From: Dictyostelium discoideum
Lineage: Eukaryota
Assembly (NCBI GenBank): GCA_000004695.1
Contig: CM000153.2
Coordinates: forward strand, 4,128,001-4,192,000
DNA: 64,000 nt
Reading direction: 5' to 3'
Shown here: piece after piece, positions 19,650 through 27,652 of the stretch
Layout of the letters: each line of letters starts with the position of its first letter
Position numbering within the stretch: position 1 is the first letter of the stretch
The notes under the pieces: generated by a model
Seen by the model: only the letters and a program-made list of their open reading frames with translations
Databases searched by the model: none
Told to the model about the DNA's origin: nothing
Program-made: the position numbers and the translations under genes

Positions 19650-20310
19650 AATAATAATTATGTAGATGAAAATCTATTTTGGAAAGTTTATAAAAATTTG
19701 TTTATTAGAGATTTAATATTTGATAAAATCATTTCAACAACAGTCATTTATAAATATGATGATGATAGTCTTAGTGGTGGTAAATTTATTGTACCTACTG
19801 ATAGAGCACAATATTTTAAAATATAATTTCTTTATCATGGATGATTAAAAGAAATTTATGGTCATTATTAAAGTATAAATTAATTCATAATGAAGAATTA
19901 ATTATAAAGAAAAAAGCAGTAGAATTACTATTACAAGAATGTAAACATGATAAAGATTTATTAAAATTATTCTATCAAAACAAGTATTATCAAATGAATC
20001 AAATTGATTTAATTTTAAATTCAATTAAACATTCAAATTTAATGGCATTAAAATTATTCATTGAAAAATATAATTACCAACAGATAATAATTCAATGGAT
20101 ATGGCACTAGAAATTACAAGTAGACAATATTATAGAAATGAAGAAGAACAAAAACAATCATTTGAAATTTTCCAATATTTTTGGGAAAAGAAAAAAGATA
20201 CTGTTCAATGCACTCAATCAGAGTTATTCAATCCAAATAGAAATTATAATACATATATGTTACAATTAATTTTAAATAATCCAAGTTTATATGGTGAATC
20301 TTCACAATCA

Positions 20311-20370
<60 letters not shown>

Positions 20371-22879
20371 ATTGGTTTAATGACATCAAGACAATTTTTT
20401 AATCTTGCAATTATGTCAGTAATACCTGAAAAAATTAAAATTGAATTACTTAATAGAGGATTTGTTAAAAATGAAAAAAGTATATATCGTGATGGTGATT
20501 ATATTGCTAAAACAATTCAAAAGCAATCACCATATCTTCCACAATCAGTTTATAGTTATTTAGAAAAGAGTTATCATTTGAATGAATTATATGAAAATCA
20601 TACCATTTCAGTTTTTTATTTTTTTAAAATATTAATTGAATATCCTGAAAAAGAAGATTCTCTTTCAATTTTAAAAAATTTCGTTAATGTAGCACACAAA
20701 TTTACAGATTTAGAAATTAAATCATATAAAACATTATCAATTAATCCAAAAAGTTATAAACCAAGTCAAAAAGTAGAAATTTTACAAGCTATTTCAAGTT
20801 TTCATTTTACATTGAAAATTAAGATAATAGAATCACTATTTCCGATTGATTCATTAACATTAAAATCTACACGATTCATTTTTGATAAATTAAAATATTC
20901 AATTGATAATGTTGGAACAATAGAACATGTTCCAAATGCAGAATTAATTCCACAAAGTTTTTATCATTTGAATATTATAAAAACAGCAGATGTAGATTTA
21001 CTTGACCAATTTTTAAATGAATTTCATTCAGATGCTGAAAGAAATTTAATATTTAGAATATATGATGAAAATCCATTAAATAAAGATTATTTCAAAGATT
21101 GTTCAATTCAAGATAGTGAAAAGATATCAAAACTCATCGATAGACTATCAAGTGTTAAAGAATTCAATTCAAATTCAAATTCATTTTTAAAATTGTTTAA
21201 AATCAAAACTTTTACCAATTTCGAGTGAATTATATATTTCAAGTTTATTAAAATTTAAAGAAACATCACGTAAACAAACATATATACACGCTAAAGTTTT
21301 AGACCAAGCATTATGTGATTTCTTTTCAGAAAAGAATAATTTAACATCAAATTTAACATCATTCATTAAATTCATTAATTTTAGAACTCTTGCAATTACA
21401 TATCTCATTGAAAAAGTTTTAAATTCCAATGATTTAGAACTTACAGAATTATTATTAAATACAATATGTAATAATAATAACAATAATAATAATAATGGTG
21501 CAGGTATTATAATGGCTCCAGTTTCTTTTAAAACATCCAATCCTGACATAATTAAATTAATCATTTCAAAAAGTAATTGTCATAAATTATTTGATTTTGA
21601 AGGTTTAATTGATACAGTTATTAGCGCCAGCAATGTTTGTAATATTAGTAATCCAAATACTGATTCTCAAACCATTGAATTAATTGAAATTGTTATTGAT
21701 TTTTTACATTCAAATAAAATTTATCAAAGAAATTCAAAAGAAGGATTTGGATTTGGATTTGGATTTGGATTTGGATTTGGAACAACGAATCAACAAGCTG
21801 AAAAAACAATAATTTCCAACGATGCAACAAAGATTGCACTTTTAAAGAAGAAATCCATTGAAATTTTACAACTTTTATTTAAATATAAAAACCTGTTTCA
21901 TTGGGATTCACAATTATTTCCAAAACTTCCAAAATTACCAACTATTCAATTGGATGATGAAATACTTCCAAAATCAGATAAACCAATAATGTCAATTTAT
22001 GAACACCAAGATTTAGAAGACCAAGATATATATCAATGTAGAAGAAGAAAGCCAAAAAATAAACATGGTGGTGGAAGTGGTAGAAGAAGAATTGATACCT
22101 ATGATGACACTGATTATGATGGCACCAATAACAACATTCCCTATATTGGTAGTATTGGTGGTAGTGTTTTTGCAAGTACTGAAGATTCAGTCAATGGTGG
22201 TCTTAGTAGTAGTAATAACAATAATAATGAATTAGGTAGTAATCAAAGTCAATTTATTCTTGGTGGTAATTTTACAGGTTTTAGTGTAAATTATCAGAGT
22301 AAAGATAAAAATAAGATTAGAAATCTATACAATACCAATTTCCTTGATAAATTTAAAACTCATCAAGCTCAATCAATATTTGATTCAATGGATCAATTCA
22401 ATAGAAATAATATGTTTTCATTTATACACTCGAGTAGTAGTGTTTTTCAAGATTCAATATATCATTCAATAAAGAATAGAAGAATAGATGTAATTGAAAA
22501 ATTAATAACTATTCAGATGTTTACAGATGATCATGCAAAATTAATTTATTCAGATTTTTTAAAAAGAATTATTAGAAAAGATGATGGTGTTGATTTAATA
22601 GCTTTTAAATACCTTTTTTCACATAGATTCCTCAAGATATTCAGTACAGAGTTTTTACAAACAATGTCACAAGAATTATTAATTTGTGCTGTTTCAGAAT
22701 GTTGTTTTCATCTTTGTCATTGGTTATTGTCAACAGATAATCCATGCAATGTATATGTTGAATTCTTGCCATTTAAAACAACCTATATTTTGAATGTCGA
22801 GAAAAAATTATCACATTGCGAATCACCAGTTTTCAAAGAATATATGATGAAAAAATTAAAACCTTTTATTAAATACTAA
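19650..22879 (+). pseudogene. Frame-disrupted locus encoding a Dictyostelium-specific protein. Segments: ~19650..19829, 19838..20110, 20095..21228, 21230..22879. Probable pseudogene, possibly unannotated short introns.
   Basis: Seen: four consecutive ORF pieces lie on the same strand, with neighbours always in different frames. Each junction overlaps or abuts by 40 nt or less. At the 20071-20108 junction no GT dinucleotide exists, so no intron can rescue it. At 21190-21228 only a 49-nt GTTTAA..CAAG 'intron' (21195..21243) would restore frame; it has the right length modulo 3 but is atypically short with a weak donor. The pieces include poly-N runs and a (GF)6 repeat 'EGFGFGFGFGFGFGTT'. The locus lies immediately 3' of the transposon. 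Confidence 0.5.
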
Positions 22880-23187: not shown

Positions 23188-23864
23188 TTAATTAAACTTT
23201 GCATTTGAAAAATCCATATCTGGGTGTTCATTTTTAAAAGTTTCAAATATTCTTTGTTTTTCTTCTTCATCAGTTGTTGGTAAACCTTGTGCTTTTCTAT
23301 TTTGATTATATAACATTTTTTCTACCATTGCTCTAGTTTCACCATCGAAATCTGATAAAGATGAATTTTGTGGTTTAATTTGTGTAACATCAATCTCTGA
23401 TTCGCCTTGAATAATACAACTCCACCATTCTTGTCCTTTTAATTTAAATAATTCAATTTCTAAATTTTTACCACTTTCTAAATAAAAAAATAAAAATAAA
23501 AATAAAAATAAAAATAAAATAAAAATAAATGTAAGAGAGTGTTTGAAAGAGTTGTTTATTGAAAATAAAAAAAAAATAAATAAAATAAAATAAAAAAATA
23601 AAATAAAATAAAAATAAAAATAAAAATAAAATACATACCTAAAGTCCAATTACAATCTGATTTTTTAACATTTTTATATAATTTACCATCAATAATTGTA
23701 TCATTTGTTATTAGATTCTTTACTGTGAGATGGTCATTGTCAATTTTAATAAATAAATCTTTTGATTTGACTGGATTTTCCAATTTGATTGACAATGTAC
23801 AATCGTTTAATGTTTGAGACCAAGTATATCTATCACATTTATTTACTTGAGATTCTTTACTCAT
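23188..23864 (-). CDS. NudC-family CS-domain protein (171 aa). join(23188..23477,23639..23864) on the minus strand.
   Basis: Seen: exon 1 'MSKESQVNKCDRYTWSQTLNDCTLSIKLENPVKSKDLFIKIDNDHLTVKNL...KLYKNVKKSDCNWTL' is CS/p23-like. A GTATGT donor sits at 23638..23633 on the plus strand, with a phase-1 boundary. Exon 2 is '...ESGKNLEIELFKLKGQEWWSCIIQGE...MVEKMLYNQNRKAQGLPTTDEEEKQRIFETFKNEHPDMDFSNAKFN*'. Established knowledge: the C-terminal 'HP(E/D)MDFSxAKFN' is the NudC signature. Confidence 0.8.
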
Positions 23865-23908: not shown

Positions 23909-23949
<41 letters not shown>

Positions 23950-24138: not shown

Positions 24139-25407
24139 ATGAAAAAACAAATATTTTTTATTATTTTACTTTTTACATTTTTATTTTTTATTAATAATAT
24201 AGAATCAAAGAATAATAGTGTACTTGGAAATTGTGAAAAGAATCAAACTGCAAAATATAAAAAGATATCATCCAAATATGGTAATGAAGAAATTAAAGAG
24301 ATTACAACCAATCAATTAAGCAAAGATCAACTTGAAAAACATGAAATGTTTATGAAGATTGCATTGGAAATAGCAATTAAAAGTAAAGTTAAATTCGTTT
24401 CCATCATTGTATCACCAGATGATCGTGTACTTTGTTCAGGTATCTTCTCAAAAGAGAATGCCATTCTTCATAGTGAATTGGTTGCCATTACAAATTGCAG
24501 TTCGTCCCATAAAATGGTAACTTTTGAAAATCATACAATCTATAGTACTGCCGAACCAGATTCATTGTCTTCTTCTGCCATCGTATGGGCACGTTTCAAA
24601 CAAGTTGTCTATGGCTCTTCAATTAAACATCTCTATTGTAATGCTTGCTTCTCAAGTTTACCAATTGATTCAACTTATATTTTCTCAAGAGGTTATGGTA
24701 TTGGAGTTGAAAATATCCAATTGGTTGCTGGTGTTTTACAAGATCAAACCGATGCAAACTTTGGTTCCTATTGTAATTCGTCAATATCTTCAGTTTATAA
24801 AACAAATCCACAATGTAAATGTAAAAATCCAAAATTATCAAAAGAAAATACCAACAACAACGATGATGGTGATGATGATAACAAAAACCATCATCGTCGT
24901 CATAGTCAAAATAATGAAATTGATGTTGATACTAAAAATGAAAGAAATCAACACCACCATGACAAAGATGATAGTATTGATAACTTTTTCGATGAAATAA
25001 AATCTGATGATGATTTTGATAAAAGAATTGAATCAGGTAAACAAGCTGAAAAGTCAAAGAATAAAGAAAAAAAGAAACATCATTCTCACCATCACTCTCA
25101 CACTAGTAAAGATGGTCGTAGTAGAACAAGTACAAGTACAAGTATTTCAGGTAATGGTCATGCAACTGCTTCTGCCTCTGCTTCTTCTTCTTCTTCTTCT
25201 ACTTCTTTCTCTCATTCTTCCTCTTCAAATGATCATCACCATAAAAAGGATAAATCAAATAAAAACAAAGACAACAAAGAAAAAGGTGATAAAAAAGATA
25301 AAAAAGATAAAAAAGAAAAGAAAGATAAGAAAAAAGATAAAAAAGATAAATCAACCTCTGTAGAAGAAGAAATCAATACCTTAAAAGTCGAAAAGAATTC
25401 AATTTAA
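24139..25407 (+). CDS. Secreted cytidine/deoxycytidylate-deaminase-like protein with degenerate zinc-binding site and a His/Ser/Lys-Asp-rich tail (422 aa, single exon).
   Basis: Seen: the signal peptide 'MKKQIFFIILLFTFLFFINNIES'. The CDA-fold block 'HSELVAITNCSS...TIYSTAEPDSLSSSAIVWARFKQVVYGS' aligns to the canonical 'HAE...PCxxC...AxxxxxIxRVVyG'. The conserved H and E are retained, but both Cys ligands are replaced (PDSLSS). The C-terminus is low complexity: 'HHSHHHSHTSK', poly-Ser, and 'KKDKKDKKEKKDKKKDKKDK'. Confidence 0.65.
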   Translation: MKKQIFFIILLFTFLFFINNIESKNNSVLGNCEKNQTAKYKKISSKYGNEEIKEITTNQLSKDQLEKHEMFMKIALEIAIKSKVKFVSIIVSPDDRVLCSGIFSKENAILHSELVAITNCSSSHKMVTFENHTIYSTAEPDSLSSSAIVWARFKQVVYGSSIKHLYCNACFSSLPIDSTYIFSRGYGIGVENIQLVAGVLQDQTDANFGSYCNSSISSVYKTNPQCKCKNPKLSKENTNNNDDGDDDNKNHHRRHSQNNEIDVDTKNERNQHHHDKDDSIDNFFDEIKSDDDFDKRIESGKQAEKSKNKEKKKHHSHHHSHTSKDGRSRTSTSTSISGNGHATASASASSSSSSTSFSHSSSSNDHHHKKDKSNKNKDNKEKGDKKDKKDKKEKKDKKKDKKDKSTSVEEEINTLKVEKNSI

Positions 25408-25622: not shown

Positions 25623-27652
25623 TTAAATATTTAATATTTTAATTGAATCAGGTATTATACCAGGTTGAATTTGATTATTAACACCTTTAAATAGATACAT
25701 TTCTTTTACAGTTGAAGGGACACTACCTTTGGTAATAGGTGGTTTAAAGCTATATATTATTAAACGTGAAACATTTGATGGAATAGTCTTTGGATGAATT
25801 ATATGAGAGAAACCATTTCCTAATTGTAATTCTTTGACAGTGTTTGGAATTGAATAAGGACTTAGAGGATATTTAATATTATAAAAGAATAAAGATTCAA
25901 CAGAGGAGGGTATGATATCAGAGGTTATAGGTTGATCGAAACCATTACCGAAATGAATTTCTTTAATACCAAATGGGATAGAACCTTGATTTAGTTGTTG
26001 TTTTACGTCGCCAATATACAAAAGTTTAAGAGAATGAGGTATGATACTTGGAGTGATTGGATGATTGAAACCACTTCTTAAATAAAGTTCACGCAAAGTA
26101 CTAGGAATACAACCAGAGAGTAATGGTTGTTTAATTTCATAGAGGTATAGTTTCTCAATTGAGTCTGGTATTATATTTGGTAGAATAAATTGATTGAAAC
26201 CATTATTTAAATGTAATTCTGTCACACCATTGGCAATACTTCCAGGTTGTAATGGTTGTTTAATATCGTACAATACAACTTTGCTAACGGTACTTGGTAT
26301 AACATTTGGCGCAATAGTATGAGAGAATCCACTACAAAAATGAACTTCTTTGACTGTCGATGGTATACTATTAGTCTTTAATGGTTGTGCAATATCATAG
26401 AAAAATAATTTTTGAATTCCTTTTGGTAAAACATGACTTTCAAATTGATGATTAAATCCATTTAAAAAGTGAATCTCTTTAATTGTTTCCGGTATTCTTA
26501 ATTCATTAAACTTTATTTTATTTGATAAACCTAATGATGAAATATCACTTGGAATTGGTTCACCATGTGTAACATAATAATTAAAATTACCACCTAATAA
26601 AAAAAAAAAAAATTATTAGTATTATTTTATTTTTTATTTTTTATTTTTTTAAATGAAAACTTACATTTTGCTAATTTATTAATTAATAAATATTGATTAT
26701 CTTTATCTTTAAATTCTTTTGATTCAATATTATAAAAATTACCAATTGATTCAGTGAAAACATCTTCTAAATCTTGATCAAAATGAATTGTATTATCAGA
26801 GAAAGGTTGAAAACGATTTGATTTTTTCTTTTCAACTAATTGATTACAAATTTCAGTATCTTTTATTATTGAAAGTAATTGTTTTTCTTTTTGTTGATCG
26901 TACATATCGAATATATCATAATTTTCTAAACAATGGTTATGTCTACTTATTACAGCATCTATAAGGTCGGAATCTTGTTGTAGTTGATTTTTAATTTTTG
27001 TATATAACTCTTCGTTGTCCGCATGGTTGGACTCCAGTATCATTGAAACGTTTGATTCTAAATCCAAAAGGACTTGATGTAATTGTTTAAACTTTTGATG
27101 AATTTTAATTAGATTCTCTTGATGGCGTGATTCAACTAAACCAAAGCAATGATCGACTGCATTCGATACCACTTTATCACTCTCTCTGTATGCCATTATA
27201 TTTGGGAGTTGATTGGCTTTAAAACTTTCTACTATATATTGACCATTCATTTTATTGATCTCTGATATCTTGTGGCCGGCGTGGTTTTCATCTATACAAA
27301 TTGGGCATACTCCACTAAGACAATCTTCACAAACTGATGTTAAGTCTAATTGATTATGTTTTAAACATTTTATATCTACATTTAAATTAAATTCATCTTG
27401 ATGTTGAAAATATTTATTATTACTACTACTAGCATTATTCGTTATATTTGTATTTTTATTATTACTATTATTATTAATATTAATATTAATATTATTATTA
27501 TTATTTTCTATATGATTGGTTTTTTGTGGTGATTGATTAAGTCTTCCTAATTTCGATTGAAATAAGGCGACTTTATTATTACTTTGATAATAATTCTGAA
27601 AAGAAGCTTTATCTTGTAAATAATTTAAATCTTGATTATTATTTGAAATCAT
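25623..27652 (-). CDS. B-box zinc-finger + coiled-coil + FNIP-repeat protein (~652 aa). join(25623..26593,26665..27652) on the minus strand.
   Basis: Seen: exon 1 carries a B-box-type motif 'CEDCLSGVCPICIDENHAGHKI' and a coiled-coil region. A GTAAGT donor sits at plus-strand 26664..26659 (phase 1), and the acceptor AG lies at 26595..26594. Exon 2 is open from 26593. It has repeated ~22-aa units 'GNGF(N/D/S)QxIxPxxIPxSVxxLxxxxIKQPLxxGSIP', the Dictyostelium FNIP repeat, ending 'IKILNI*'. The ORF track shows only a 216-aa piece because it starts at an internal TTG codon. Confidence 0.75.

Follow-up and report, generated by a model that had tools for sequence, protein, structure and literature searches.

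DDB_G0286161 of Dictyostelium discoideum: a deaminase-fold protein with a predicted signal peptide, a lost zinc site and a conserved low-complexity tail

Inactive paralogs are a known kind of protein within the cytidine deaminase (CDA) fold. ADAT3 (Tad3), a TadA-like paralog under selection, is a non-catalytic subunit that contributes binding. The gene analysed here, DDB_G0286161 of Dictyostelium discoideum AX4, lies in a stretch of contig CM000153.2 (positions 4,128,001 to 4,192,000; the window below means the whole of these 64 kb), and its product resembles ADAT3 in being a probably inactive TadA-like paralog under selection. ADAT3 chains are among its sequence matches. The two proteins differ in what was lost: ADAT3 keeps its zinc ligands and lacks the catalytic Glu alone, whereas DDB_G0286161 keeps the Glu and has lost both zinc cysteines and the substrate-binding Asn. 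ADAT3 is nucleocytoplasmic, whereas DDB_G0286161 carries a predicted signal peptide and a long low-complexity tail, and a heterodimer is in its case hypothetical. Inactive APOBEC3 domains also generally retain their zinc ligands, which DDB_G0286161 has not.

Among active enzymes, guanine deaminase of Bacillus subtilis (GuaD, 1wkq/1tiy) is the best match in the Protein Data Bank (PDB) to a profile of the family that contains DDB_G0286161 (E=1e-18). The H-x-E / PCxxC / Asn architecture of those dictyostelid relatives whose zinc site is intact is also that of GuaD, Nitrosomonas guanine deaminase NE0047 and plant guanosine deaminase. However, these three are cytosolic zinc enzymes at ~15-21% identity, without the leader, the extra disulfide cysteines or the tail. 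The dictyostelid relatives form an uncharacterised family of signal-peptide CDA proteins, 30-51% identical to DDB_G0286161, with which they have the leader, five cysteines and the domain boundaries in common. They end in short or glycosylphosphatidylinositol (GPI)-like C-termini and not, as DDB_G0286161 does, in a charged tail of ~190 amino acids (aa), and they keep the zinc site. Exported bacterial relatives possess the same domain, many with leaders, but their zinc site is intact and they lack the eukaryote-specific cysteines and the tail. Secreted AID/APOBEC-like deaminases (SNADs and the dictyosteliid AADs), as far as they are described in the parts of PMC5889660 considered here, belong to another branch of the superfamily, judging by the absence of matches to APOBEC-type models. 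While inactive deaminase-fold paralogs are familiar, a secreted one that lacks both zinc cysteines and has gained a long charged tail is new. DDB_G0286161 is probably a functional gene for a catalytically dead pseudo-deaminase of the secretory pathway, kept as a binding or partner module.

The deaminase domain and its zinc site

The gene was identified through an exact sequence match of an open reading frame (ORF) in the window to XP_637885.1 (UniProt Q54M63). The coding sequence (24139-25407, plus strand, as are all parts of the gene given below) is a complete single exon, which runs from ATG to TAA, encodes 422 aa plus a stop, and requires no intron. DDB_G0286161 is already in databases, yet unstudied: literature searches by DDB_G or UniProt id found neither it nor its paralogs named in any main text.

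The TadA/guanine-deaminase-like CDA domain comprises aa 66-230 (24334-24828), as delimited by Pfam, structure prediction, Foldseek and substitution rates. A preliminary description of the locus, made from the letters alone, had recognised a CMP/dCMP/tRNA-adenosine deaminase core, and a profile search confirmed it. Pfam PF00383 (dCMP_cyt_deam_1) matched aa 66-159 with 43.3 bits (gathering cutoff 25, E=3.5e-11), covering profile positions 2-101 of 102, a match well outside chance expectation. MafB19-deam (PF14437) reached 26.0 bits, just under its cutoff of 27, and overlaps the stronger PF00383 match. The NCBIfam equivalog for TadA tRNA adenosine(34) deaminase (NF008113) scored 28.1 bits, below its threshold of 150, and intact relatives reached merely 30-49 bits against it. 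NCBIfam contained no equivalog for DDB_G0286161, its paralogs or the bacterial relatives.

An AlphaFold2 model of aa 24-244, built from an alignment of 119 sequences, had a predicted template modelling score of 0.79 and a predicted local distance difference test (pLDDT) score of 93-99 across protein residues 54-163. The predicted domain is a three-layer alpha/beta/alpha CDA fold, in agreement with the deaminase assignment of the preliminary description. Foldseek searches of the PDB with the model returned TadA, plant guanosine deaminase, NE0047 and ADAT2 (E~1e-9 to 1e-7), the top matches (TadA, guanosine deaminase and guanine deaminase) with a probability of 1.00 and E~1e-9. When the family profile was compared with PDB sequences, B. 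subtilis guanine deaminase came first (1e-18), narrowly ahead of TadA and cytosine deaminase. On the basis of the Foldseek matches and this ranking, the dictyostelid family is placed in the TadA/free-base-deaminase branch.

A phmmer alignment with Streptococcus pyogenes TadA (2nx8) pairs the TadA motif mHAEmmAI with lHSElvAI and EPCVMCS with EPDSLSS. The H(A/C/G/S)E motif is thus present as H111-S112-E113 (24469-24477), aligned to HAE of TadA, while the two zinc cysteines of the PCxxC motif are replaced by Asp141 and Ser144 in a degenerate PCxMC, P140-D141-S142-L143-S144 (24556-24570). This is what the preliminary description had proposed for HSELVAI and the missing ligand motif. The substrate-binding Asn upstream is lost as well, its site being the Phe103 codon (24445-24447) according to the column comparison.

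The zinc cysteines are absent from one dictyostelid group only, which consists of the D. discoideum strains, D. cf. discoideum, D. citrinum, D. dimigraforme, D. firmibasis and D. purpureum. This zinc-less clade was compared with 243 intact relatives at columns conserved in at least 80% of them (>=80%). Both zinc columns are Cys in 98% of the intact relatives, with 22/22 for the dictyostelid and 98% for the bacterial ones. In the clade D141 is found in 6/6 orthologs and S144 in 5/6, with Ala144 in D. purpureum; the codons at 141 and 144 in four species are GAT and TCT/TCA. Column 103 is Asn in all 22 intact dictyostelid members and in 87% of bacterial relatives, but reads F/F/F/Y/Y/D in the clade. 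Further changes of the clade are Met143 to Leu, Gly112 to Ser and Gln173 to Ser, Asn or His. Glu113 is retained in 6/6 zinc-less orthologs (99% of intact relatives), as are Glu139, Pro140 and residues of the fold core, M72, Y135, T137 and W150 among them. His111 is replaced by Arg (LRSE) in the D. purpureum ortholog only. The substitutions of the clade gather round the active site, and the scaffold is preserved.

Several other residues were considered as replacement ligands. C167-N-A-C170 (24637-24648), ~25 residues downstream, is a family-wide CxxC present in 22/22 intact dictyostelid members and in 2/221 bacterial relatives; C212 and C226 are distributed in the same way. Since every intact dictyostelid member has C167 and C170 beside PCxMC, they are not substitute zinc ligands, and they are predicted to be structural disulfide cysteines. 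Of the histidines, H124 and H164 vary among orthologs, while H132, which precedes D141 by nine residues and opens the strand leading into the EP motif, also occurs in intact members. No Cys or His is conserved solely in the zinc-less clade among the orthologs and intact relatives compared, nor does any alternative Cys or His align at the metal site, and the deaminase reading of the domain stands. As far as the sequences indicate, His111 and Asp141 are the only plausible metal ligands that remain.

Dictyostelid relatives, selection and expression

While a word-indexed homology search returned close orthologs only, an exhaustive HMMER search found 272 matches at E<=1e-3, 39 of these at E<=1e-10. 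Closest are proteins, ~210-330 aa long, of the dictyostelids Cavenderia, Tieghemostelium, Heterostelium, Acytostelium, Synstelium, Polysphondylium violaceum, D. purpureum and the D. discoideum group. Four intact paralogs occur in D. discoideum AX4, namely DDB_G0272030, DDB_G0282171, DDB_G0272442 and Q8T1Z7 (P0294, P0281, P0275 and P0291 in the search set), all with intact HGE and EPCPMC motifs. The 22 intact dictyostelid members tabulated all have a signal-peptide-like N-terminus, H-[GAS]-E, the upstream Asn and C-x-M-C, and 8/22 have a GPI-like hydrophobic C-terminal tail. Five extra cysteines (positions 32, 167, 170, 212 and 226 of DDB_G0286161) are each present in 21-22 of the 22 and nearly absent in the 221 bacterial relatives tabulated. 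DDB_G0286161 belongs to this family by its signal peptide, Cys32, Cys167-x-x-Cys170, Cys212 and Cys226, and by its nesting in the tree.

In a neighbour-joining tree (159 columns, 100 bootstraps) the zinc-less clade is monophyletic in 100/100 bootstraps and lies inside a subfamily, C (74/100), whose intact members are Cavenderia DFA_04368, Tieghemostelium DLAC_03059 and P0010, the last being the nearest intact relative of the clade. The CDA core of DDB_G0286161 thus descended from an intact signal-peptide dictyostelid deaminase of subfamily C. As the zinc-less clade is monophyletic within an intact subfamily, the sequences place the loss of the zinc site as a single event in the stem of Dictyostelium sensu stricto, before the split between D. 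discoideum and D. purpureum. Both cysteines, Asn103, Met143 and Gln173 were lost in that stem, and His111 later in D. purpureum; the zinc and substrate site is destroyed. The clade kept the fold core, Glu113, Glu139 and the five extra cysteines.

The bacterial relatives are ~25-35% identical and are labelled as nucleoside deaminase or auto-named TadA. Sec-like leaders were seen in 86/213 and twin-arginine-like leaders in 71/213. A profile search gave about 1100 bacterial nucleoside deaminase matches at E<=1e-8. Because both dictyostelid and bacterial relatives carry leaders, export looks ancestral to this deaminase branch and secreted deaminase folds are not rare in the lineage. The preliminary description had called secreted deaminase-like proteins uncommon. 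This did not hold, given the four intact signal-peptide paralogs, the occurrence in all dictyostelid groups, the bacterial export leaders and the published secreted AID/APOBEC-like deaminases (PMC5889660).

Some relatives deserve separate mention. The bacterial relatives (e.g. P0028, P0029, P0031) suggest a large uncharacterised family of exported CDA-fold deaminases. P0025 (391 aa) has an N-terminal domain that lacks both zinc site and Glu (HGL...EPSVLS), fused to an intact C-terminal domain (HSE...EPCCMC), and is an independent dead-plus-live pairing in the wider family. P0005, a metagenomic bacterial-type protein of 145 aa with 30% identity, is degenerate in the opposite way: it retains PCPMC, while its H-x-E has become HDV and the catalytic Glu is lost. 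In Tieghemostelium lacteum four intact family members stand in tandem on LODT01000037.1 (8519-13729 of L004), where the first gene model lacks the leader and has a poly-Ser tail. This array is a lineage-specific expansion and is distinct from the published T. lacteum AAD/MACPF/peroxidase locus.

Codon alignments of D. discoideum with the syntenic loci of D. firmibasis, D. citrinum and D. dimigraforme gave a ratio of nonsynonymous to synonymous substitution rates (dN/dS) of 0.07-0.12 for the CDA domain, at a dS of 0.26-0.51. The domain is under strong purifying selection. The ratio was 0.21-0.40 for leader plus linker, 0.26-0.34 for the tail and ~0.23 for the whole gene. The ORF is intact in the D. 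discoideum strains, D. cf. discoideum, D. citrinum, D. dimigraforme and D. firmibasis, and is represented by a partial model in D. purpureum. Domain identity to the close species is 87-92% (intact paralogs: 88-98%).

The gene is also well transcribed. DDB_G0286161 has a baseMean of ~2556 normalised counts, while two intact paralogs have 547 and 331 (PMC9686302 supplement). Exposure to B. subtilis raised its transcript with a log2 fold change of +2.61 (~6-fold, adjusted P 3.7e-16; PMC7078664 Table S2), while Klebsiella pneumoniae induced it slightly (+0.88; PMC7078664). The regulation of the family is not uniform: two intact paralogs are repressed by folate, whereas DDB_G0286161 is induced by B. 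subtilis.

Leader, tail and neighbouring genes

The predicted signal peptide, aa 1-23 (24139-24207), was delimited by hydropathy and sequence heuristics, which also give the likely cleavage site. It consists of MKK, the hydrophobic region IFFIILLFTFLFFI and NNIES, with the predicted end at NNIES|K. This bears out the preliminary description, which had named a clear signal peptide. The hydrophobic core is 14 residues long, is the sole hydrophobic segment of the protein and has too few residues to cross a membrane. An equivalent leader was seen in every one of the 22 intact dictyostelid relatives. It is followed by a mature N-terminal linker, aa 24-65 (24208-24333), with low pLDDT, which contains Cys32 (kept in 21/22 intact dictyostelid family members) and N-x-S/T sequons at N25 and N35. 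In all, 8 Cys and 5 such sequons occur in the mature protein. Hydropathy and sequence heuristics found no membrane span, GPI-like tail or KDEL/HDEL signal, and the protein ends in ...EKNSI. By these sequence features DDB_G0286161 would enter the secretory pathway through a cleavable signal peptide. A review on secretion in Batten disease does not mention DDB_G0286161.

The C-terminal tail, aa 231-422 (24829-25404), was described by composition and conservation. It begins with an acidic/Asn segment and continues through DDSIDNFFDEIKS...KEKKK, a His-rich block, a Ser/Thr-rich block and K/D repeats to the end STSVEEEINTLKVEKNSI. The ~193 aa after CKCK include 38 Lys, 32 Ser, 26 Asp and 17 His. 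The low-complexity composition given in the preliminary description is seen in both the translation and the repeats reported by the tandem repeat program TRF. The His-rich block HHSHHHSH, aa 314-321 (25078-25101), is encoded by a period-12 repeat, CATCACTCTCAC; the poly-Ser block (25169-25226) by CTTCTT repeats of period 6/9; and the (K/D/E)-rich repeats KKDKKDKKEKKDKKKDKKDK (25241-25350) have periods of 9/30/48 and scores up to 123. Across 8 orthologs the tail is 187-207 aa long with conserved composition. Retained features are the DDSIDNFFDEIKS...KEKKK segment inside the tail, the blocks rich in His and in Ser, the K/D repeats and, at the terminus, STSVEEEINTLK(V/I)EKNSI; the strains differ by small indels. 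No Pfam family matches the tail at E<=10. A full-length AlphaFold2 model from 7 close orthologs had a mean pLDDT of 33 and was uninformative on the tail.

Small tail indels distinguish the D. discoideum strain variants P0001 (419 aa) and P0007 (404 aa) and the D. cf. discoideum protein P0008 (429 aa). The strain model P0004 (254 aa) departs from the others at its N-terminus and is cut short at its C-terminus, which probably reflects gene calling or assembly.

The window has ~22% G+C and features of the Dictyostelium type; the flanks of DDB_G0286161 are AT-rich, as is usual in Dictyostelium. Upstream, on the minus strand, lies a CS-domain (NudC-like) gene divided by a short AT-rich intron (23188-23864). 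Within the promoter region that it has in common with DDB_G0286161 there are long stretches of poly(T) and one of poly(A), ~38 nt in length (23909-23946). Downstream, also on the minus strand, is a gene with a B-box zinc finger and FNIP repeats (25623-27652; 7 FNIP repeats, 188 bits), represented by two ORFs that are apparently separated by an intron. The CS-domain gene upstream and the FNIP/B-box gene downstream are also found in D. firmibasis, D. citrinum and D. dimigraforme. Farther upstream, two plus-strand ORFs, 21512-22879 (455 aa) and 20095-21228 (377 aa), are without a Pfam match; in the former there are a (GF)n repeat and a run of Asn. A tRNA scan of the window found none.

Possible roles of DDB_G0286161 and its family

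The loss of the zinc cysteines and the substrate Asn implies that canonical zinc-activated hydrolytic deamination would be impossible for DDB_G0286161. In the proposed mechanism Asp141, His111 (Arg in D. purpureum) and Glu113 probably form a polar or salt-bridge network that fills the former metal site and holds the two active-site helices together. The protein would enter the endoplasmic reticulum (ER) via its cleaved signal peptide and, since it has no membrane span, GPI-like tail or KDEL/HDEL, would be either released or sent to endolysosomal or phagosomal lumina. The dead domain was most likely retained as a binding module. It may dimerise, with itself or with the intact secreted paralogs, by analogy with the TadA-like deaminases, which are dimeric, and with the live/dead pair ADAT2/ADAT3; the two-domain fusion P0025 is a precedent for such pairing in the wider family. 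Alternatively, it may bind a small ligand without hydrolysing it. The ~190-aa charged, His- and Ser-rich tail would tether the protein to extracellular polyanions, metals or matrix.

Several observations weigh against this picture. The domain of the D. purpureum ortholog is 56% identical to that of D. discoideum, compared with 67-73% for the intact paralogs, which suggests some relaxation, seen as a modest acceleration, although constraint is still clear. None of His111, Glu113 and Asp141 varies among the five close species, where a weak two-ligand metal site is conceivable. The D. purpureum sequence is a partial gene model and its Arg111 is known from one assembly. That the tail binds polyanions or metals, as the preliminary description proposed, is suggested by its composition only. 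The product was not found in the two proteome supplements searched, including that of the Francisella vacuole.

Of the two alternatives left by the preliminary description, a dead fold put to new use is the one now favoured, and an enzyme with an unusual metal site is disfavoured. Such an enzyme would use a non-canonical metal or a metal-free arrangement of His111, Asp141, Glu113 and water for deamination or another hydrolysis. The invariance of these three residues in D. discoideum, D. cf. discoideum, D. citrinum, D. dimigraforme and D. firmibasis (codons 113 and 144 vary synonymously), the catalytic Glu in 6/6 orthologs, the ability of Asp to ligate zinc and the purifying selection on the domain are in its favour. 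However, only two candidate protein ligands are left, as Ser binds metal poorly and position 144 is Ala in D. purpureum, where Arg also replaces His111; the Asn at position 103, present in 22/22 intact dictyostelid members, has given way to a variable F/Y/D; and the zinc-less clade has gained no conserved His or Cys of its own. Continued enzymatic activity is therefore considered unlikely. It is extremely improbable that the gene has no function, whether as a pseudogene in decay or as an artefact of annotation or assembly. The missing canonical catalytic residues and the tail indels between strains (404-429 aa) could be read in this way, but the dN/dS of domain and whole gene, the conserved synteny, and the identical substitutions in independent assemblies of six species or lineages rule it out, as do the abundant transcript and its significant regulation by bacteria, for which mis-mapping from paralogs is unlikely at <=40% protein identity.

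Where a pseudo-deaminase would act is a further question. Action in the endolysosomal or phagosomal system, for example in handling Gram-positive prey, instead of release to the medium or matrix, is a rather doubtful but plausible option. A signal peptide indicates entry into the ER only, many lysosomal proteins of Dictyostelium are soluble signal-peptide glycoproteins, and induction is ~6-fold with B. subtilis and weak with K. pneumoniae. On the other hand, there is no recognisable sorting signal, the protein is absent from the Francisella-vacuole proteome supplement, and the GPI-like family members of other species point to the surface or exterior as the ancestral site. Another proposal would equate DDB_G0286161 with the published secreted dictyosteliid AID/APOBEC-like deaminases, either active or as a decoy in nucleic-acid-directed immunity. 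In the parts of Krishnan et al. 2018 considered here, signal-peptide AADs with a four-cysteine C-terminal region are described from C. fasciculata, T. lacteum and Acytostelium, and inactive AAD copies arise repeatedly (PMC5889660). The present family likewise has four extra C-terminal cysteines and a lineage-specific tandem expansion. However, no APOBEC, AID, SNAD or NAD Pfam model matched DDB_G0286161 (E<=10) or 9 relatives (E<=0.01); family members match dCMP_cyt_deam_1, MafB19 and Bd3614 instead, and among solved structures guanine deaminase and TadA come nearest. The T. lacteum copies have no MACPF or peroxidase genes beside them on LODT01000037.1, while the published locus is LODT01000051.1, and the portions of PMC5889660 considered list no D. 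discoideum members, where the present family has five. By its Pfam matches, locus and species distribution the family appears different from the published AADs, and identity with them is judged very unlikely. A catalytically dead, secretory-pathway binding or partner module thus remains the preferred reading of DDB_G0286161.

The intact paralogs, which lie outside the window, raise a question of their own. The pterin 2-amino-4-oxo ring is guanine-like. The folate deaminase of Dictyostelium, which drives self-generated folate gradients (PMC8616412), was in 2021 'identified biochemically but is yet to be cloned' (PMC8616412, PMC4794234), and no report of its cloning was found in the literature after 2021. 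The known pterin deaminases belong to the amidohydrolase superfamily, which is unrelated to the CDA fold. Folate repressed 26 of 8,553 detected genes, including two intact paralogs and pdsA (PMC7078664 Table S2), with log2 fold changes of -4.13 for DDB_G0272030 (the strongest), -2.91 for DDB_G0282171 and -2.16 for pdsA (PMC7078664). A rough calculation puts at about 6e-5 the probability that chance would place two of four genes within 27 of 8,553; co-regulation of paralogs is conceivable, hence this is an association only. According to Bernstein et al. 1981, as cited in PMC2117037, cAMP and folate regulate folate deaminase and cAMP phosphodiesterase jointly. The four intact paralogs are circumstantial candidate genes for folate deaminase, because they are exported, have a guanine-deaminase-like best PDB match and include two that are folate-repressed together with pdsA. 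DDB_G0286161 is not itself a candidate for the enzyme because its zinc site is lost. As a long shot, the four paralogs may be a secreted and surface folate/pterin deaminase and DDB_G0286161 its non-catalytic member, either a heterodimer subunit whose charged tail tethers the active enzymes or a protein that binds folate or pterin without hydrolysing it and so buffers the attractant. If true, DDB_G0286161 would be the counterpart, in secreted chemoattractant clearance, of the ADAT2/ADAT3 live/dead pairing.

For the question of why a dead CDA fold persists, DDB_G0286161 is a cleaner case than ADAT3 or the inactive APOBEC3 domains: the zinc ligands, the Asn and in one species the His are gone, while the fold is held at a dN/dS of ~0.1. 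Being transcribed above its live paralogs in a genetically tractable host, it makes a good system in which to ask this. The uncharacterised five-gene D. discoideum family of signal-peptide, guanine-deaminase-like proteins may matter more than DDB_G0286161 alone, and its four intact members are a short, directly testable list of candidates for folate deaminase.

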